This document shows, piece by piece, positions 3,141-15,074 of a stretch of 64,000 bases of DNA; position 1 is the first letter of the stretch; each line of letters begins with the position of its first letter. Origin of the DNA: a phage; sequence record PZ445442.1; one strand, 5' to 3'. A program made the position numbers and the translations under genes. The notes below the pieces were generated by a model. The model was not told the origin of the DNA. It did not search any database and saw only the letters and a list, made by a program, of their open reading frames with translations.

Positions 3141-3804
3141 CTGGAGCAAGTATTTCACCTACAGTGACGGCAAACTGTTCTGGGCGTACACTGCAAAAGC
3201 CGGAAGGGGCAGGGTTATACATTACGCAGGTGAGGAGGCCACAGGCACAGATAAAAATGGCTATAGAGTGATATATGTGTCAGGTGTTGGGAGTGTTCGT
3301 AGGCATAGAATAGTTTGGGAGATGCATTACGGGGAGATACCTGAGGGACTTGTTGTGCGGCACAAGAACGACATAGCGGGCGATGATAGGGTAGAGAACT
3401 TAGTCCTAGGTACACAGGGCGATAATGCACGAGACATGATCTACAGTGACAAACTGAGCATTAACAATACCTCAGGGTGTAGAGGTGTACGCTACCATAG
3501 AGGCATAAAAAGATGGATTGCATCTGTTGGAGATATATACTTAGGGTGTTTTAAGACAAAAGAGGCTGCAATTGAATGCAGAAAGTTATGGGAGAAGGGA
3601 AAATTCGTCCCGCAAGAGTTGGATGTTAGAAACACTAGCGGTGTAACAGGGGTGTTCTATGTGCCGAGCTCTGGAAGGTGGAGAGTCAGAGTGCAAAGCG
3701 GCAAAAAGAGAAAGAGCTATGGCACTTACAATACTTTAGAAGAAGCAAAAACTGTAAGGGATAGAGTGATGAAAGAGATTGAGGAGTTTAAAGATGGGGA
3801 ATAA
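3133..3804 (+). CDS. HNH homing endonuclease (HNH + AP2-like DNA-binding domain), free-standing
   Basis: HRIVWEMHYGEIP...VVRHKNDIAGDDRVENL HNH signature and GVRYH..WIASV...LGCFKTKEEA AP2-like motif; sits between the MTase-like gene and primase-helicase. Confidence 0.7.
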   Translation: MVDWSKYFTYSDGKLFWAYTAKAGRGRVIHYAGEEATGTDKNGYRVIYVSGVGSVRRHRIVWEMHYGEIPEGLVVRHKNDIAGDDRVENLVLGTQGDNARDMIYSDKLSINNTSGCRGVRYHRGIKRWIASVGDIYLGCFKTKEAAIECRKLWEKGKFVPQELDVRNTSGVTGVFYVPSSGRWRVRVQSGKKRKSYGTYNTLEEAKTVRDRVMKEIEEFKDGE

Positions 3805-5872
3805 GTTTATATCCTCTGCATATAGCCGCTATGGAGAACCTAACCCAGTTGCAACAAGATACAAAAGTGGGGGTAGTATGAAACGAGACTATCGTGATGA
3901 AAAAGAGGTTGAAACTGTAGAGACTGTTTTAGAAAATACTAAAATTGTCCCTGTCCCACAACAAAATATCGGTCTGATGGCTGCACAATATTTTGGTGTG
4001 CGATCAGCATTGTCCCAAGAAGACGGTGTGACAGTCACTGCAACATATTTCCCATATTACGACCGATACGGAAATCTGTCCGGTTTCAAAAAGCGTGACT
4101 GGTCTAAGCCGAAAGAGCAGAAAGGGCACTGGTCTGTAGTAGGCATCGTAAAGGCCAACTCCCAGATGTTTGGTCAAAAGCTGTGTGCATCTTCCAACAA
4201 CCGTAAGCAGATCAACGTTTGTGAGGGAGAAGGTGATGTTATTGCAGCATGGCAGGCTGCATATCAGATACAAGTAAAAGGGATTCTCACCAATGCTAAA
4301 GCCCCGGCAAAGGTGAAGCAGTGGGCTAAAGAGGTCCAGGACGGGATCGATGCAGTTATCAACGGCGGTGATCTGGCAGGAAAACCCTGCCTGCCTTTTG
4401 TTGGAATTAACTGTGGATGTGCAAACGCAGTAGATACTTTTGCAAACAATGAGAAGTTTATCCGTAGCTATGGAACAGTTGTGCTGGCAATGGATAACGA
4501 TGCAGCTAACGAGGTAGAGAAGCAAAAACACGTCATTAAAGGTGTTGAGGCCACGCACAATATCGCAGCATTTTTAATGGCTGATAACGTTTACCACGTA
4601 GAATACCCTGGTGAAGTAAACGACCCTGACGGTGTAAAAGATATCCGAGACATGCTGAAGGCTAAAAAGCTGGAAGATATTGTCAACATGTTCCGGCATC
4701 CTGTTAAATATGTGCCTGATGCTGTGTCGGATTTAGAAGACTTCTCTATCGAGTCTTTGCGGAAAAAGACTTCCAACGGGGTAGATATCAGTGCAGAGTT
4801 CCCAAAACTGCAAAAAATGCTAAAAGGCTTGCACAAAGGGACACTCGTAATGCTTACAGGTCCATCAGGCGGCGGTAAAACAACCGTGGCTAAAAAACTG
4901 GAACACTGTATTGCAAGATACCTAATGGATCCGACATGCCAGAAGGCTGATGACTATGAAGAGGATGATCGTCTATGTATGATCCATCTTGAGGAGGACC
5001 CAGAGGAAGCAATTAACTCCTTGTATGCAAACCAGTTAGGGTTTGATGTTAAAGAGTTTGTTGAAGATCCTAGCCAGTTTTTAACTGATCAAGAACACGC
5101 AGAGATTCACCAATCATGGGCAAAAGCTGGAAAAATCAAAGTGTTCAAACATTTCGGGTCTATTCCGGTGGACGAGTTGATTACCAAGCTTAAGCAAATG
5201 GTTTGCCTGTACCATTGTCGTTATATTGTGCTGGATCACCTATCCATGGTAATTTCAGGGCTTAATGTTAAGGATGAGCGAAAAGAACTGGACATAGCTA
5301 TGACTCAGCTGGCTGCGTTTTGTAAGCAGTTTAATGTGTTTATCTTGGTGATCGCTCACCTCAAACGTACAGAGATTGTGCCTCCTAAGGACAAGGATGG
5401 TAACCCGTTACCTTTCTGGTATCCTGTGCGAAAAGAGAATTTGCGAGGATCGGCTGGGCTTGAGCAGTTGAGTTGGGTAGTCATAGGTGTCGAGGCCGAA
5501 GAAATGGTGGATCGTTCTCGTGGGCGTGTCCGTCTGGTAGGTCTTAAAAACCGTCCAGCAAAAACTTTAGGTATTGCTGACACTTTAGTTATGGACCCAC
5601 ACACAGGTAAGTTCCATGATGCCAGTAATTGGTACTGGGACAAAGAAATGCAAATGTTTACAGACGGAGAAGGTGGGGAGGTTGTTTGGAGACCTCAGGC
5701 TATGTTTGAGGATCAGGAGCATGCAGTTGTAGAAACACCTATGGGCAAGGTTGTGGCTGATAAGGTTGTAACTCCTACTGTTAAGTCTGTTGACACGCAG
5801 GAAGACCTCCAGTACGATGATCCATCCTCTGACCCGGTCCCCGGTTTTGAGGATGATGAAACGCCTTTTTAA
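3794..5872 (+). CDS. DNA primase-helicase (Toprim + DnaB-like helicase, T7 gp4-like)
   Basis: Toprim motifs CEGEGDV and LAMDNDAANE; Walker A GPSGGGKTT; Walker B/H2 IVLDHLS. Start moved to ATG 3794 with GAGGAG SD 7 nt upstream (track start 3779 is TTG). Confidence 0.85.
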   Translation: MGNKFISSAYSRYGEPNPVATRYKSGGSMKRDYRDEKEVETVETVLENTKIVPVPQQNIGLMAAQYFGVRSALSQEDGVTVTATYFPYYDRYGNLSGFKKRDWSKPKEQKGHWSVVGIVKANSQMFGQKLCASSNNRKQINVCEGEGDVIAAWQAAYQIQVKGILTNAKAPAKVKQWAKEVQDGIDAVINGGDLAGKPCLPFVGINCGCANAVDTFANNEKFIRSYGTVVLAMDNDAANEVEKQKHVIKGVEATHNIAAFLMADNVYHVEYPGEVNDPDGVKDIRDMLKAKKLEDIVNMFRHPVKYVPDAVSDLEDFSIESLRKKTSNGVDISAEFPKLQKMLKGLHKGTLVMLTGPSGGGKTTVAKKLEHCIARYLMDPTCQKADDYEEDDRLCMIHLEEDPEEAINSLYANQLGFDVKEFVEDPSQFLTDQEHAEIHQSWAKAGKIKVFKHFGSIPVDELITKLKQMVCLYHCRYIVLDHLSMVISGLNVKDERKELDIAMTQLAAFCKQFNVFILVIAHLKRTEIVPPKDKDGNPLPFWYPVRKENLRGSAGLEQLSWVVIGVEAEEMVDRSRGRVRLVGLKNRPAKTLGIADTLVMDPHTGKFHDASNWYWDKEMQMFTDGEGGEVVWRPQAMFEDQEHAVVETPMGKVVADKVVTPTVKSVDTQEDLQYDDPSSDPVPGFEDDETPF

Positions 5873-5930: not shown

Positions 5931-8354
5931 ATGAGTATGTGGTCGTTCGATTTTGAGTCATCCGGTTTGCTGGAAGACCCAGATCTTTATTATCACTGCG
6001 GTCTGTTTAAAGAGCTGAATAAGAACCGTTTTATGCTGTTCCTTCCTCTAAATGACCGCACACACTACTCCGAGGAGGATATAGAAAAGGCTAAGAACTT
6101 CATTCTGGCAAAGAAAACTCTTTATAAAGATTTTGAAGTTCGCATAGCAGATTTTTCGGAGTTGGAAGGTTGGCTTACAGGCAATTCTGACTGGTCACCA
6201 ACAGCTTTGAACTGCCATAACTGCTACAGTTATGACTTTATGCTGATGGAAAGATTATCCGGTATTCATTTTGATATGTTCCGTGATCCTAAATGCATGG
6301 GGACTATCAACGATCACCAGGTTAACCTGTTTGATACGTTGGCGATGAGCCGAATCTTGTGGCCTGATCGCCCTTTACCAAAAGGTTGTCCGGACTCTGT
6401 ATTCAACCCGGTTACTAAGAAAATGCAGCCTGTTGGTCCCCACGGCCTTATGGCATGGGGCTACGCCCTTGGTAACCAGAAAGTTCAAATTGATGACTGG
6501 CGCGATCTTCCGTTGTGGAAGTATGTGGATCGTGTATTCGAGGACGTTATCATCCAGGAGCTGCTCTGGAAAGAGCTGGTAGCGGAATCAAAAGGTGTAT
6601 TCTACGGCAAATCTGACATGCAGAACTTTATGTACGATCCTGCCAAAGAGAAGCCGAAAGGGTTCAAGAAGATCACCTGGAAGAACGCATTACGCCGAGG
6701 CATGCTGCAGCACTTCCTGATGGAGCTGCAGGCCCGTCAGGGTGTGTATTTTGACATAGATGGAGCTATTGCTTTACGTGACCGTTGCGATGCGTGGATG
6801 AAAGAAATCGCTGATCGTGTTGAACCACAACTACCTTTAAAAGAGTTGTCAATGTCTCAGCGGCCCAAGTTCCCTGAAAAGCCGTTTAACCAAGATGGGA
6901 CAATCTCCAATAATGGTTGGAAATGGTTAAAAGATAAGCTTGGCTATCCTGTAGATATGAGCGCTTTAGAGTTCAAAGCCCCGCCTAAGCGAGCATTTAC
7001 CTCCACAGGGGATGTCAGCAAGATGGGGATAAAATGGTGTGAAGAGATGGGCTGCAAAGACCCTGATAAGATGGCTGATTTCTTGAGAGGCTATATTAAG
7101 GGCACTTCCACACCACAACCTTTACCTAAAGAGCTGATGGATCAGGCAATAAGTGATCTGCAGCAGAAGCGAATGCCTGACTGCAAGATACCTATGAAAA
7201 TCAGCAATCAGGACGACATTAAGCGGTATCTGATCAGTGCTGGCTGGCTCCCGACGATGTGGAGAACTAAGGATGTAACTAAAGACAGCAAGAAGAAAGC
7301 CCTACCTGATGCAGATGTTGATGCACGAGTATATGCATATATGGACGAGCTTTTAGAGTCAGAGTATTGTGATCTGATTATCAACTTCTGGAACAAAACT
7401 GATGCTAAGTTCCAGACAACCGTGCACAAGTTCCGAAGCTTTCCTAACTCCGAAAGGATTAAAAAGGAAGTATTCGGGAAAATACGTAGAAAAGCTAGGG
7501 CACTTATTACTTCTCCGCAACTGAAAGATACGTTTGGACACCTATGCCCGAATCTTGAAAAATTGAACGGAGAGATGGCTAAAGATATCGTCTTGTGGTT
7601 ATCTTTGCGAAACCGCAGATCGGTACTTGATCCAATCAAGGAGGATAAGGTTGATACTGGTCTTCTTAATCACCCACGTTTGAAGATTGACCATAAGCTT
7701 CCTGCTAAAAGCTCTGGATTAACAAACACTTCCAGACAGAAACACAGTATTTGTGCAAACATGCCTAAACCATCTCCTAAAGTGGTCATGGGTAAAGAGA
7801 TGCGTAGTCTGTGGGGTGTTCCTCCAGGATACTTTGAGATCGGTATTGACGGGTCCAACTTAGAGCAGCTTATCGGGGCTTGGGGTGCCTTTGAGTTCGA
7901 CAACGGATTGTATTATGATGTTGTAAGTAACGGGGACGCACACCAAAACAATGCTGAAGCATATACAAAAGTGGCAGGCAGAGAGGTGTCTCGTAACGAC
8001 GGTAAACCTATCACGTATGGGGTTATGTATGGGGCACAAAAAGATAAAGTTGCAGATATGCTGGACATCTCTCCAGAACTGGGGCAGAGAGTAATTGATG
8101 CTCTCTGGGATGCCAACCCAGGTCTTAAGGGGCGCAAAGAGGATCTGGAGAAATTCTGGGAAGCAACAGGTAAGAAATTTATCTACTCTTTTGACGGGCA
8201 TGCCATTTGGACCCGCTCTAAACACTCTTTGCTTAATGCATATCAGCAAAATGGCGGTGCATCGTTGTGCGACTTGGTCGGAATCCTCATGCACCACCAA
8301 ATGGTGAAGCGTGGATGGTATGATGAAGGTGTTCGTCGTATTATTTATTACCAT
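5931..8354 (+). CDS. DNA polymerase, family A, exon 1 (3'-5' exo + pol motifs A and B)
   Basis: Exo I FDFESSG at N-terminus; motif A-like GIDGSNLEQL; motif B KPITYGVMYGAQ; ORF halts at ...RRIIYYH just before motif C. Exon ends on T8354 (group I 5' splice-site U). Confidence 0.85.
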
Positions 8355-9196
8355 AAATAACATTGTGGCTTCGTGCAGTGATGCACGTCGAAAACCTCTT
8401 TAATTGACGGGAAGGCTAAGTTGACTTTTACACCTAAACATGGTAAAAGCTCAATATGCTAATCCGCAGCGAAGACTAAAGGGGTGTAGTTAAAATGGCT
8501 AGATCAGTTGATTATCACGGATATACCGTGTTTGATGATGGAACAATACCTTTATCGAAACGTGATCATACAACAATGTTCTGTTTTGATAATGGTCGAG
8601 GTTACCTTTGCGTAACCATGTTCATCGAGGGGAAGCAGTGCACAAAAGGTGTCCACCACTTGGTTGCTGAATGCTTTGTATCAAACCCTGATCCTGAAAG
8701 GCTCACATGGGTGAACCATAAGGACGGAAACAAATACAACAATGCATACTGGAACCTTGAATGGACCACCCCTGGTGGAAATATCAAACACGCTTATGAT
8801 AATGACCTCAGAGTAAGGCCAGTCGGTGAGTATAATGCCAACGCTGTACTGACCGAGGATGAGGTAACGGAGATTTGCGAACTGTTACAAAGTGGTTTAC
8901 GACAATGCGAGATTAGGGATCTTGGGTATCCTTATGAGACGGTCAGAGCCATAAAGCAAAGAAGACAGTGGAAACATATCTCTAAAAACTACACCTGGTA
9001 GTAACGTTCAGAGACTATCGAAAGCATAGCGCCAACATAAATTGGTGCGAAGAAGCGAGTAGAGTAGGCCAGCAAGTGCGGTCGAAATGGGAGGTGCCTT
9101 GGTAACAAGGTAGTGAGATAGTCCGATCCATACAGGAAACTGTATGGCTGTGCACGTAATGGTGCGGGGTAGCTTAACGACCTACCTGAACTATTG
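8355..9196 (+). mobile_element. group I self-splicing intron in DNA polymerase gene (contains HNH ORF)
   Basis: P1: exon CCAT (8351-8354) pairs with intron GTGG (8365-8368) giving the U-G splice-site wobble; P7 strands CAGAGACTA (about 9009-9017) and GAGATAGTCCG (about 9115-9125); intron ends in G9196; splicing restores motif C (...YYH|DEYQLQV). Confidence 0.7.
8495..9001 (+). CDS. intron-encoded HNH homing endonuclease
   Basis: Track ORF; HLVAECFVSNPDPERLTWVNHKDGNKYNNAYWNLEW HNH_3-like signature; located between P6-region and P7 of the intron. Confidence 0.75.
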   Translation: MARSVDYHGYTVFDDGTIPLSKRDHTTMFCFDNGRGYLCVTMFIEGKQCTKGVHHLVAECFVSNPDPERLTWVNHKDGNKYNNAYWNLEWTTPGGNIKHAYDNDLRVRPVGEYNANAVLTEDEVTEICELLQSGLRQCEIRDLGYPYETVRAIKQRRQWKHISKNYTW

Positions 9197-12363: not shown

Positions 12364-12729
12364 ATGGAACAAATGAACGATCAAGCGTCGGTTGCGATGA
12401 ACGAGCAAGAACAACCTCAAGAATTTTTCTTAGGGTTAAGTAAAGATCAAGTGTCTCTTCTGCTAGTGCTTTCTTCTTTCATGGGAAGACTTCAGGAGCT
12501 TACACAACAGCCAGAGGCTGAACAATTATTCCAGGCTCTGCGTGAAGAAGAAAAATATCGTCGTTTGGACTATGCCTTAGGTTGGGTAGCTCAACAACGA
12601 GATATGCTGATGGCCCTCTCTGGGACCACAAGTTTTGCAATGGGCCTGTTGGCTCAAGTTCAGGACAAATTAATTCAAGCAGGGTTTGCACACACGGCAA
12701 ACACTAACGAAGAACAAGGAGATAAATAA
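12364..12729 (+). CDS. hypothetical protein
   Basis: Track ORF; Q/E-rich helical protein. Confidence 0.5.
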   Translation: MEQMNDQASVAMNEQEQPQEFFLGLSKDQVSLLLVLSSFMGRLQELTQQPEAEQLFQALREEEKYRRLDYALGWVAQQRDMLMALSGTTSFAMGLLAQVQDKLIQAGFAHTANTNEEQGDK

Positions 12730-14000
12730 TGAGCGTTATTCAACAATTCGCTAACCCGATGAATCCGCGTGAAACTGTTTTACTAGCTCACGGCATGATT
12801 AAACGTGTCAGCATCAAGCCTATCAAAGGTGCTGATCCTACAACAGGTATTAAAACCACTGTGTGGCAAGGTAAGAAAATTGAATCCAGCCACACCATCT
12901 CTTTACTGATTTCTGAACTGGATTCCTCTGATAACCTACTTCAAGGTGGTGAAGAAGTTTGGATCAGTATGGGCGATAAGCTGCTTAAACCAGGTCATCA
13001 AGACTCTGTCTCTGTTAAAATTGATGACAAGTGGGAAACCGTAACGCCAGGATGGATCGTAAATATCCCTTTGAAGGCAAACGAGCATAACGGTAAGACC
13101 TACTACAAAGGCTCACTGGCTAAGATGGTTAAGCTGGGTGCAGGAGAGGCTCCAGCAGCGACTCAGCAGCAAAAACAGCAACAAGGTGCACAATCACAAG
13201 GCCAGAAGCAGAAACCTCAGCAGAATGCCAATCAGGGCGTTTTACGCATCTATGGTGATGTGACTCAGATTGTTGGCAACGTGGTTACTGTTAATGACCA
13301 CAAGATTGGCGAAGGTGCTATGGTTGTAACTGATGAGCAGCTTAAAGACCTAGTGGTAGGTGGTCGTGTTGCAGCCATTGTTGACAAAGACACCGGAAAC
13401 ATTATCAGTGGTTTCAAGGCCTATCCTCCTAAGGCAGAGAACGGTACTCAAGGCTCCGGTGGCAAGCGTAAATCCTCTTACGACCCTATTGGTGTGGAGA
13501 CGGGGCATAGCATCAATGCGTTGCAGATCATCCTGGATCGCGGGTTTAAGGTGGACGACCCACTAGGTGTGGCTAAAACACTGCACGTAGTCACCATTGA
13601 GCTTAAGAAAGAGTATGCTCAAGCCACCAACCGAACTGAAGATGAAGTAGGTGCCAGTGTCGGTAATGCGGTGTTGAACGCTTGTCGCCGTATTGACAAG
13701 AAAACGAAAGTTGATGATTTTGCAGCGGCAATTACTGCAGAAGCAAAAGATGTCTTGACTAATCTGGCTGAGCCGTTGTACGATTGGATCAAGAACGGTG
13801 CTGAGTCCACTGACCATCAAGAACCTCAAGCTGCCAAACAGGAAGCCGCTCCACAGCAAAACACTGTAGACGCACCTCCTGTAAATGATGAGGAAGATGA
13901 CCCGATGGGTCAGAATCCGGCGCAGTATGACTTCTGTGATGACATACCTTTCGCTCCGGTAGGTTTGCAATATGGCAAAAGTAGAATCCACGCATTGTAA
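12729..14000 (+). CDS. putative single-stranded DNA-binding (SSB-like) protein with C-terminal extension
   Basis: Inference only: Q-rich flexible linker ([20 protein letters not shown]) and acidic tail ending ...[17 protein letters not shown], resembling the bacterial SSB C-terminal DDDIPF tip, followed by 16 extra residues that overlap the next gene. Confidence 0.3.
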
Positions 14001-14595
14001 GAGGTGCATCAAGTGCGGAGAGGTGAAAGACATCTCCGAGTTCTACAAACACCCAAAGATGTCTGACGGTCATCTTAATAAGTGCAAAGAGTGTTGCAAG
14101 AAGGCCAGCAGGGAGGCTGACCAATTTTCCCACGACTCTTCAGAAAAAGGTGTAATACGCGTGCTGTACAAGGCTCAAAAGTGCAACAGCAAGCAAAGAG
14201 GTCACCCGCCTCCGACTTACACCAAAAAAGAGTTTAAGGAGTGGCTATACCTAAACGGTTACAAAGAGTTGTATGATCAGTGGGTAGCCAGCGGATACGA
14301 CAAAAGGAAAAAGCCTTCTTGTGACAGGATAGATGATTTCAAAGGGTACTCTTTTGATAATATCCGTTTAACGACTTGGGGAGAAAATAAAGACAAGCAG
14401 ACAGAGGATATTCTGTTGCATAGAAGCACCAGCGGTAGACGGTGTAAAAATGTAAGGAGGCTGGACATGAATGGCAACGTTCTTAAAGAATGGGTATCCC
14501 ACAATTCTTGTAGAAGAGAAACCGGAATATGTGTTGATTACTACATTCATGAAAAAATTCCAGCCCCAGATGGATACCTCTACGAATACTTTTAG
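13972..14595 (+). CDS. putative homing endonuclease (zinc-finger + HNH_3-like)
   Basis: N-terminal CxxC...CxxC cluster; [28 protein letters not shown] resembles the HNH_3 core (DHID..N...NLR..T..EN) with D in place of H; start overlaps 3' end of the SSB-like gene. Confidence 0.45.
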
Positions 14596-14610
14596 CACCT
14601 AACTAACATA

Positions 14611-14638
14611 GCCCTGCCCGAAAGGGTGGGGCATTTTT
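14611..14638 (+). terminator. rho-independent terminator (duplicate of the 2334 hairpin)
   Basis: Same GCCCTGCCC-GAAA-GGGTGGGGC stem followed by ATTTTT. Confidence 0.6.
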
Positions 14639-14657
14639 GTATAAGGAGATCTGAAAA

Positions 14658-15074
14658 ATGACATTAGAAGATATCATTGTTAAACCTGAGAACTATGACC
14701 AATACAACCTGTCAACTCAATCTGTAGACCTTGGATGCGCCACAGTTAGTGCGTGGCTGGTTAACGGAAAAGAGCTGGACAAGTGCTTAGAAGCTCACAT
14801 GTCTGTTAACAAGTTTCTGGATGAAAATACTCACTGGCTGGAAGGTGCAGGCGTATATGCTTCATGGTTGGAGAGCATGGGCTTTGACTATCAATCTGAT
14901 GAAGGGTGGTGGAGCTATCTAGCTATCTGTCCAGAAACACTGCAATGCTTCATGAAATACTCTGAAGATCTTGAGTACCGAGCGGTGGTTGATAGTGCTA
15001 TTGCCCGTTATAGCCGTAAACCTTTTTCCCACGACATTAAAACTGTGGAAGAGTTTGTTGAAGTTTTCTGTTGA
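14658..15074 (+). CDS. hypothetical protein
   Basis: Track ORF; AAGGAGATC SD. Confidence 0.55.
   Translation: MTLEDIIVKPENYDQYNLSTQSVDLGCATVSAWLVNGKELDKCLEAHMSVNKFLDENTHWLEGAGVYASWLESMGFDYQSDEGWWSYLAICPETLQCFMKYSEDLEYRAVVDSAIARYSRKPFSHDIKTVEEFVEVFC

Follow-up and report, generated by a model that had tools for sequence, protein, structure and literature searches.

The gp2.5 and gp4 proteins of phage T7 carry acidic C-terminal tails that end in phenylalanine (Phe). In bacterial SSB, partner recruitment depends centrally on the terminal Phe with its free carboxylate. The pockets that bind the SSB tip take the Pro and the Phe at the ultimate C-terminus, and basic residues contact the Asp and/or the terminal carboxyl (PMC3632105). 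Partners of the E. coli SSB tip (DFDDDIPF) are ExoI, RecQ, PriA, chi, RecO and DnaG. In phage T4, segG lies between genes 32 and 59 and its product cleaves gene 32 ('intronless homing', PMC2988022). A family of SSB-like phage proteins has just been implicated as a trigger of DRT10: Bas52_0087 of phage RudolfGeigy is the SSB-like trigger of DRT10/UG17 defence, two OB folds have been ascribed to it and an interplay with ExoI has been proposed, the requirement for activation having been demonstrated for Bas52 only (bioRxiv 10.64898/2026.04.29.721553). The text and supplements of that preprint give no per-phage value for Bas49, and the preprint makes no mention of the extension/endonuclease allele described below.

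We analyzed a 64,000-nt stretch of DNA (sequence record PZ445442.1, referred to as the window) from Escherichia phage EmilHeitz (Bas49, Vequintavirus), in which an ortholog of Bas52_0087 is overlapped at its 3′ end by an HNH endonuclease gene (Table 1). A first-pass annotation made from the letters alone had singled out both open reading frames and the internal DDIPF tip, and we confirm all three; the extension behind the tip counts 15 residues rather than the 16 then given.

Table 1. Features of the SSB-like gene, its 3′ cassette and their surroundings (window coordinates)
Feature	Position	Strand	Basis
Upstream gene, 121 aa, phrog_7310; TAATG overlap with the SSB-like start	12364..12729	+	ORF; profile
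SSB-like replication protein gene bas49_0089, 423 aa	12729..14000	+	ORF; phrog_4477; Bas52_0087 orthology
N-terminal beta domain, OB-like, aa 1-138	12729..13142	+	
Q-rich disordered linker, aa 141-168	13149..13232	+	pLDDT <50; sequence
Second small beta-barrel domain, aa 171-232	13239..13424	+	AF2 strands 171-232, pLDDT 81-88
Four-helix domain, aa 253-355; DRT10 escape positions D252, Y351	13485..13793	+	AF2 helices 253-355, pLDDT about 90-95
Replaced segment (cassette): last 12 codons recoded, extension, endonuclease, ~15 nt past its stop	13919..14610	+	
SSB-Ct-like acidic tip YDFCDDIPF, aa 400-408, internal in the Bas49 allele	13926..13952	+	sequence
Extension, 15 aa, member of the AP[IV]GLQ[YH]... 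tail module	13953..13997	+	sequence; homologue comparison
Free-standing HNH homing endonuclease gene bas49_0090, 207 aa	13972..14595	+	phrog_1035; AF2; PacI, Hpy99I, I-HmuI matches
N-terminal Cys4 Zn ribbon (C12, C15, C38, C41)	13996..14094	+	invariant cysteines; aligns to PacI N-terminus
Beta-beta-alpha-Me core; Arg replaces first HNH His, as in PacI	14314..14391	+	PacI alignment
C-terminal I-HmuI/NUMOD-like DNA-binding region (predicted)	14443..14592	+	profile aligns to I-HmuI residues 73-171
Intrinsic terminator, common to all alleles	14611..14640	+	

The product of the first gene is a Vequintavirus SSB-like replisome protein in which two OB-type barrels and a helical domain precede an acidic tail that is disordered. 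Its residues 1-408 match the phrog_4477 profile (E 6e-173), and 402 of 408 are identical (99%) in Bas52_0087, with D252 and Y351 kept. The two proteins are positional orthologs that share two OB folds, the helical domain and an acidic tail with an FDDDIPF-type tip. Bas52_0087, however, terminates with the tip and is not followed by an endonuclease gene, whereas the Bas49 allele has D403C within the tip, the added residues and the overlapping endonuclease gene. The OB fold suspected earlier is supported by the AF2 model, in which the predicted fold provides the OB-type ssDNA-binding core of a bacterial-type SSB. The protein showed no match to the PF00436 SSB profile in Pfam or NCBIfam, even at E≤10, and these databases returned no usable match for the SSB-like protein, the endonuclease or their sub-domains. 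Compared with E. coli SSB, the Bas49 protein thus has an OB fold, a disordered tail and a near-identical tip motif but no PF00436 match, and F408, the last residue in the 408-aa orthologues, is internal, with the free carboxylate absent. A DnaB-like helicase with the C-terminal end FEDDETPF is also encoded in the window, adjacent to a family A polymerase. As in T7, the SSB-like protein and the helicase of Bas49 both have acidic Phe-terminated tails, but the Bas49 tip is E. coli-like rather than T7-like and the extension is without T7 counterpart. In distant relatives, the helicase bears the tip together with the extension.

The overlapping gene product matches phrog_1035 (E 7e-41) and its AF2 model (pLDDT 92.4) has a beta-beta-alpha-Me nuclease fold. 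Phmmer comparison with the PDB gave only weak matches and became informative once a profile was used. The enzyme resembles the PacI restriction endonuclease (3ldy/3m7k) in its N-terminal CxxC...CxxC ribbon and its vDRxDxxxGYSxxNxRL core, and I-HmuI (1u3e) in its C-terminal region. At the canonical HNH His position stands an Arg (DRID) that aligns with the DR of PacI; D118-R119 and N139 are invariant, and N130 is nearly so. By analogy, we assume that the endonuclease is catalytically active despite this replacement. Among 45 homologues, PF22083 is matched by 12 and NUMOD1 by nine, while the Bas49 endonuclease itself matches neither.

Several other identities were rejected. The label T4 endonuclease VII, which many orthologues carry in GenBank, has no Pfam match behind it, a PHROG label being its sole support. 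An intron- or intein-encoded endonuclease does not fit a separate ORF in another frame, and Rfam, which detects a DNA polymerase intron at 8345-9146 in the same sequence, is blank over 12,700-14,700. The peptide MEKAESTH at the same overlapping ATG in two other loci (L077 and L083) raised the possibility that the first eight codons of the endonuclease gene were borrowed from another gene; this was dismissed because similar extension DNA (38 of 46 nt identical) gives rise to the +1-frame ATG through its Tyr-Gly codons, and relatives use a second such +1-frame ATG, in ...IYAL. RNA structure near the endonuclease start (13930-14030) does not go beyond that of shuffled sequences (z 0.64) and therefore provides no evidence here for the kind of RBS-sequestering hairpin that PFN-type cassettes, described below, seem to carry.

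The endonuclease core was found in 52 of about 117 related records holding the locus, once per genome and always at this site, which agrees with the first-pass proposal of an endonuclease inserted at the extreme 3′ end of the SSB-like gene. Its presence varies among genomes that are 95-99% identical at the locus, and an 82%-identical ortholog (L043) has a decayed copy in which 5′ and 3′ remnants persist and the extension is intact, only the interior being lost. Such fixed-site presence or absence combined with decayed copies characterizes homing endonucleases. In the empty alleles, the intrinsic terminator directly follows the SSB-like gene, making the endonuclease a promoter-less insert in that transcription unit. 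Close orthologues free of the endonuclease, including Bas52_0087, stop directly after ...DDDIPF. The 52 occupied records divide into 32 with the extension junction and 20 with a navn-type junction lacking the extension, where the stop directly follows ...DDSIPF, an end that occurs together with the endonuclease in phages WalterGehring and HeinrichReichert; because the navn-type allele keeps its stop after PF, insertion alone does not remove the stop. The 36 nt just upstream of F408 differ from the empty alleles at nine positions (25%) compared with about 2% for the rest of the gene, and the alignment of alleles places the right-hand boundary of the replaced segment at about 14610.

We consider it probable that a cassette of ~0.7 kb, consisting of the recoded tip, a pre-existing extension and the HNH endonuclease, entered Vequintavirus by gene conversion. 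In Bas49 this optional cassette lies between the body of the SSB-like gene and its terminator. The endonuclease would cut endonuclease-free alleles at or near a putative target in the DNA for the tip and stop codon, and repair from the occupied genome during co-infection would presumably copy the endonuclease along with flanking sequence. Occupied alleles would be protected because this short tip/stop region is recoded or extended. The extension, pre-existing and selectively maintained rather than produced by the insertion, would have been carried into Vequintavirus as flanking sequence co-converted with the endonuclease.

A presence/absence polymorphism by itself is compatible with both insertion and deletion. 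An alternative history is that the extension, alone or together with the endonuclease, is ancestral and that the 408-aa alleles arose by deletion of both between two TTY-stop junctions, with nothing imported. Consistent with this, the extension is old and occurs in scattered branches all over the family tree, and loss does happen, as in L043. Furthermore, both junctions present a Phe-stop, TTC TAA CATCTAGTTAAC for the empty SSB-like ORF and TTT TAG CACCTAACTAAC for the endonuclease, and since both precede homologous sequence they offer microhomology for a precise deletion. However, the decay product L043 has lost the endonuclease interior and not the extension, the 25% divergence before F408 within genes that are ~98% identical fits foreign replacement better, and the 5′ ends of the endonuclease differ between the three allele types. 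We regard the deletion as unlikely and retain gene conversion as the preferred history.

The Bas49 endonuclease shares with T4 SegG a free-standing gene adjoining a phage SSB gene and a promoter-less cassette within an existing transcript and, in the proposed history, the co-conversion of flanking markers (PMC2988022). SegG, however, is a GIY-YIG enzyme encoded upstream of gene 32, whereas the Bas49 enzyme is of the HNH type and its gene overlaps or abuts the 3′ end; unlike SegG, the HNH family recurs behind many unrelated tip-bearing genes. A second parallel is T7 gene 2.8, annotated 'endonuclease', which lies directly behind an SSB gene with an acidic-Phe end and starts one base past the gene 2.5 stop (GACTTCTAAGTG). 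Its product differs in having another N-terminus without the C.KCG...FY...C..C ribbon, and the terminal Phe of gp2.5 is kept.

The first-pass annotation had further proposed that the insertion replaced the stop codon and thereby created the extension; in the strict form of this idea, the 15 residues are accidental, functionless read-through into cassette DNA. In Vequintavirus, the extension never occurs apart from the endonuclease (32 of 32 records) or its remnant (L043), the endonuclease-free close orthologues end at DDDIPF as the annotation expected, and related cassettes add a single codon to give PFN before the stop, all of which favors read-through. Outside this group, however, the same peptide is present in endonuclease-free orthologues and unrelated families with a terminator or another gene directly 3′. 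Distant orthologues lacking the endonuclease (L007 from Serratia phage Kashira, L008/9, L019, L022 and L044) end in AP[VI]GLQY... followed by a terminator, precisely the observation that the annotation had named as contradicting its proposal. Despite an overall identity of 25-40%, all 27 homologues continuing past PF share the GLQY core and 25 of them the AP[VI] prefix. Over the APxGLQY codons, third positions are saturated and amino acids are kept (pS 0.84, pN 0.08, pN/pS about 0.10), a pattern indicating that the extension is under purifying selection. The navn-type allele, in addition, combines an endonuclease with a stop directly after PF. Accidental read-through is very improbable, and in its strict form it is already refuted by the endonuclease-free extension alleles.

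The extension is instead a conserved, previously undescribed tail module of many phage replication proteins and not insertion debris. We defined this module, from a consensus of 62 distinct extensions rather than a curated family, as A-P-[IV]-G-L-Q-[YH] directly after ...PF, followed by a C-terminal stretch of 7-10 residues whose end is hydrophobic; the Bas49 extension has each of these elements. A profile search of 1.84 billion proteins returned 47 clusters (50% identity), with the module C-terminal in every case. At least six protein families have it behind the tip, in most cases without an endonuclease close by, and its hosts comprise PF00436 SSBs, DUF669 SSBs, phrog_4477, other SSB-like families and PF03796 (DnaB-like) helicases, from many gammaproteobacterial phages and prophages. 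The endonuclease is absent from 44 of 49 IMG/VR loci with the extension, and likewise from L007, L008, L019, L022, L044 and L047. Literature searches on the motif strings, on SSB extensions and on endonucleases next to ssb found no description.

The endonuclease belongs to a family of at least 418 IMG/VR loci in which the Cys4 Zn ribbon is the domain common to all SSB-3′-end-associated members, with two different nuclease domains behind it. The family sits almost exclusively just 3′ of genes whose products finish with an acidic D-D-x-[ILV]-P-F tip of the SSB type: about 72-74 of 78 loci lie 4-170 nt behind a gene for a protein with an acidic PF terminus, including PF00436 SSBs, gp2.5-like proteins and a DEAD helicase. 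An endonuclease was found downstream of 67 of 99 genes ending in DDIPFN-stop and of 0 of 103 ending in DDDIPF-TAA, extending to the wider family the earlier idea that occupied alleles have altered SSB C-termini. The contrast holds inside protein clusters (24/31 vs 0/24, 14/24 vs 0/3 and 10/12 vs 0/5). The left end of the PFN-type cassette is conserved as CCTTTT-AATTAG-AACGGGTCTATAATGG. In other phages, many occupied alleles have an unextended PF end with a non-canonical tip such as DDSLPF or DDQLPF, so a changed stop is not obligatory.

Near-universal synteny with tip-encoding genes from at least five protein families, and co-transcription with no terminator between the genes, would also suit a non-selfish role: the Zn-ribbon HNH protein might work together with replisome proteins that bear the tip, for instance as a nuclease that the SSB tail recruits. 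Against this, the gene is present or absent among genomes that are 95-99% identical at the locus, and decayed copies exist. Moreover, the tip/stop region is recoded in occupied alleles only, two nuclease domains alternate behind one Zn ribbon, and the I-HmuI/NUMOD-like architecture is typical of homing enzymes. We find a partner role extremely unlikely. As a homing enzyme, this large HNH family appears specialized on the coding DNA of a short peptide motif that ranks among the most conserved in bacteria, which, if true, would explain the mosaic 3′ ends of SSB genes and why PFN variants are frequent in phage SSBs.

With Phe408 internal, we infer that the extension caps the tip, removing the free carboxylate used in binding to canonical SSB-Ct pockets and possibly supplying a second docking motif for another partner. 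In the AF2 monomer of the full SSB-like protein, the tail and extension are disordered and no docking is seen (extension pLDDT about 31-37). By analogy with T7-style tails, the partner of the tip may be the phage polymerase and not a host protein, which would change the meaning of 'capping'. A broader proposal is that the extension, as a functional cap or second docking motif, switches replisome proteins between states that do or do not engage host SSB-interacting proteins, and that endonuclease-driven tail swaps alter how visible phages are to defences keyed to the SSB tip and ExoI, such as DRT10; we hold this to be rather improbable. The free ...DDIPF-COOH would then be the engaging state, and Bas49 and Bas52 would constitute a natural near-isogenic pair with 99% identical proteins differing essentially in the tail. 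In natural alleles, the tip is exposed in Bas52, mutated to DDSIPF in the navn type and covered by the extension in Bas49 and rV5; since BASEL or other isolate collections include all of these, the part that the tip plays in triggering defence and in replication is directly testable.

Upstream, the 121-aa gene is likely translationally coupled to the SSB-like gene. In phage JLBYU08, this upstream gene carries the label 'putative SSB'.

The segment 12300-15100 of the window is 100% identical to Escherichia phage EmilHeitz (Bas49, MZ501062.1), an rV5-like Vequintavirus. As the first-pass annotation had described, two ORFs overlap here (by 29 nt), and the 423-aa product of the first has a Q-rich linker and an acidic tail with an internal YDFCDDIPF tip ending at F408. 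The extension past this tip counts 15 residues rather than the 16 reported. The endonuclease ATG sits within the Q-Y-G codons of the extension, and the same junction recurs in 32 independent phage records. An upstream 121-aa gene (phrog_7310) overlaps the start of the SSB-like gene as TAATG and is also labelled putative SSB in one GenBank record (JLBYU08).

Features of the locus and its surroundings, predicted domains of the SSB-like protein and allele types in Vequintavirus
Feature	Position	Strand	Description
bas49_0089 (SSB-like)	12729-14000	+	GenBank: hypothetical protein
bas49_0090 (endonuclease)	13972-14595	+	GenBank: putative homing endonuclease
Replaced segment	~13919-14610
Terminator	14611-14632
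phrog_7310 gene	12364-12729
DnaB-like helicase (PF03796)	3779-5872
Family A polymerase	ORF from 5931
Group I intron (RF00028)	8345-9146
Intron ORF	8495-9001		168 aa, annotated homing endonuclease
Beta domain	aa 1-138		AlphaFold model
Disordered linker	between beta domain and second barrel		AlphaFold model
Second small barrel	aa 171-232		AlphaFold model
Four-helix domain	aa 253-355		AlphaFold model
Disordered tail	aa 361 onward		AlphaFold model
Allele A, empty			408 aa, ends FDDDIPF; 62 nt to next gene
Allele B, navn type			20 records; 408 aa, ends FDDSIPF; 192-aa endonuclease starts 8 nt later
Allele C, rV5/EmilHeitz type			32 records; 423 aa; overlapping 207-aa endonuclease

The SSB-like protein has no match in Pfam or NCBIfam; phrog_4477 matches it along its whole length, the profile ending exactly at residue 408. 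An AlphaFold model was built from an alignment of 42 homologues. The protein's positional ortholog Bas52_0087 of phage RudolfGeigy, the trigger of DRT10 defence, has been described as ‘SSB-like’, having a pair of OB folds and ending in the C-tip FDDDIPF, with escape substitutions at D252 and Y351 and a proposed interplay with ExoI/SbcB (bioRxiv 10.64898/2026.04.29.721553). The two proteins are identical at 402 of 408 positions, D252 and Y351 included, and two of the six differences fall in the tip. Fold, motif and literature thus back the SSB-like label, whereas membership of PF00436 is not supported.

The endonuclease protein matches phrog_1035. A profile of 45 homologues matches PacI (E 0.0047) through an N-terminal CxxC...FY...CxxC ribbon and the core vDRiDdykgYs.dNirL, and I-HmuI (E 0.036) through the core and the C-terminal region; 12 of the 45 match PF22083 (I-HmuI NUMOD-like) and nine match NUMOD1. 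C12, C15, C38, C41, D118, R119 and N139 are invariant and, as in PacI, an Arg replaces the first HNH histidine. No intron RNA was found around the gene, and the protein is a free-standing HNH-type endonuclease. The label ‘endonuclease VII’ carried by orthologues is backed by no profile except the PHROG name.

Among the ~117 records containing the locus, 52 carry the endonuclease core, one copy each, and three allele types are found. The terminator is common to all of them, making the endonuclease a promoter-less insert between the SSB-like gene and the terminator. Along the gene, each 60 nt shows 0-3 differences between alleles A and C, but the 36 nt directly before F408 contain 9. The two alleles diverge again over ~15 nt past the endonuclease stop, which bounds the replaced segment. 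In a metagenome ortholog (L043, 82% identical) the extension is intact and ~560 nt of the endonuclease are gone, leaving ~44 nt from the 5' end of the ORF and ~23 nt from its 3' end. A homing endonuclease is expected to show just such optional presence, diverged flanks and decay (PMC2988022). Sixteen records named ‘Campylobacter phage’ (host C. jejuni; e.g. MG065644, MG065690) share ~97% identity with E. coli Vequintavirus over the locus, and their host labels look doubtful.

The extension itself is not insertion debris. The first-pass annotation had derived it from the insertion, a reading contradicted by several extension alleles that lack an endonuclease: in Serratia phage Kashira a terminator and a convergent gene follow, in L008/9 a methyltransferase, and in L019, L022 and L044 terminators. 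Of 72 homologues gathered by whole-protein similarity, 27 run past PF, all with a GLQY core and 25 with an AP[VI] start (the others start SPV and AYA). Their overall identity falls as low as ~25%, and within the same subfamilies sister proteins end at DDDIPF. Scanning IMG/VR with a degenerate DNA pattern for P-F-A-P-[VI]-G-L-Q-[YH] returned 57 loci, mostly canonical SSBs (MASRGVNKVILVGNLG..., ending ...PPMDFDDDIPFAPIGLQYPALLNCM); of the 49 whose downstream sequence is long enough, only 5 are followed by a Zn-ribbon ORF. The consensus of 62 distinct extensions is AP[IV]GLQ[YH][PGA]x[LH][LA][ILN][CYH][MAC][LI], 14-17 residues long. At 11 loci picked by homology, not by motif, the seven APxGLQY codons have a pS of 0.84 (saturated) and a pN of 0.08, a constraint equal to that of the tip (ratio 0.16).

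The extension also terminates the DUF669/HK620-type SSB of a Salmonella prophage, members of other SSB-like families and some small proteins. It likewise closes a 691-aa DnaB-like helicase from distant rV5-like phages (L053, L078 and L102; IMG/VR contigs of 86-147 kb), which ends ...GPDDDTPF-APIGLQYAKHAIYVI; the module is therefore not limited to SSBs. When 1.84 billion representatives were searched with a profile, 47 clusters emerged, with the module C-terminal in every one. In a one-genome-per-species set it occurs in ~12 representative genomes, nearly all Gammaproteobacteria (among them Vibrio, Pseudoalteromonas, Oceanisphaera, Providencia and Tatumella). Three proteins of 86-136 aa (P0196, P0199, P0213) end ...DFDDDIPF-AP[IV]GLQ... 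with no OB domain detected, and may be free-standing tail mimics or just fragments.

The N-terminal ribbon is common to two nuclease classes, PacI-like and classical HNH, both found behind SSB-like genes. Searching IMG/VR with the ribbon alignment gave at least 418 loci; among the best 78 with an upstream ORF, ~72-74 sit 4-170 nt past a gene with an acidic ...PF tip, ~20 of these tips having one added residue (PFN, PFS or PFD). The upstream genes encode PF00436 SSBs, gp2.5-like proteins, other families and a DEAD-box helicase, the last a 580-aa protein ending ...EDFDPTDIPF (L126), with the Zn-ribbon HNH gene 21 nt further on. In IMG/VR, a Zn-ribbon ORF lies within 330 nt of 67 of 99 phage genes ending DDIPFN (L211-L330), against 0 of 103 ending DDDIPF-TAA (L331-L450). 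The contrast persists inside protein clusters (24/31 against 0/24, 14/24 against 0/3, 10/12 against 0/5), and the left end of occupied alleles is conserved (CCTTTT AATTAG AACGGGTCTATAATGG). Occupation thus accompanies an altered gene end in this family, and to this extent the first-pass proposal stands. Some PFN alleles without the endonuclease gene still hold remnants. A possible hairpin spanning the RBS and ATG follows the conserved left end. In T7, gene 2.8 (L451, 9857-10276), an annotated endonuclease, likewise abuts an acidic-Phe SSB gene, starting one base past the stop of gene 2.5 (...DGDF), but lacks the Zn ribbon.

Four steps make up the most economical account. A homing endonuclease specific for SSB 3' ends would have settled behind an extension-type SSB gene and then reached Vequintavirus by gene conversion, carrying along both the extension and the last 12 codons in recoded form; the extension itself would be an older module with a function. 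Supporting this, the window's extension DNA matches, at 38 of 46 positions, the extension DNA of a canonical SSB gene on an unrelated 54-kb phage contig (L077), where the downstream gene, not an endonuclease, also begins at an ATG inside the Q-Y-G codons. The reverse direction, with the extension ancestral and the empty alleles produced by deletion, we consider unlikely. In L077 (4714-5007) and L083 (625-918), both with canonical extension-type SSBs, the ORF starting at the ATG inside the Q-Y-G codons is a conserved one of 97 aa with the overlap geometry of the window endonuclease.

SSB partner pockets accept the Pro and Phe at the ultimate C-terminus, and surrounding basic residues contact Asp residues and/or the terminal carboxyl group (PMC3632105). 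The 15 added residues would abolish the carboxylate at the tip Phe. The window helicase, just upstream of the polymerase, ends FEDDETPF (...PVPGFEDDETPF), so that, as in T7, helicase and SSB-like protein both have acidic Phe-type tails with a polymerase nearby. The T7 polymerase is where the tails of that phage's SSB and helicase dock. Distant relatives carry tip and extension on the helicase instead. On these grounds we favour an extension that would cap replisome tails and offer them a second docking motif; it could possibly be a degron or removable pro-peptide.

The endonuclease and the SSB-like protein are of known kinds. The conserved extension, whose motif strings were not found in the literature searched, and a Zn-ribbon HNH family specialised on SSB-tip-encoding gene ends both appear undescribed; the allele series in available isolates makes them readily testable. 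Overall, the first-pass observation held and its interpretation was partly supported. The family A polymerase gene is itself split by a group I intron (full-length RF00028 match, E 3.4e-7, below the gathering score), across which the GenBank CDS is joined.
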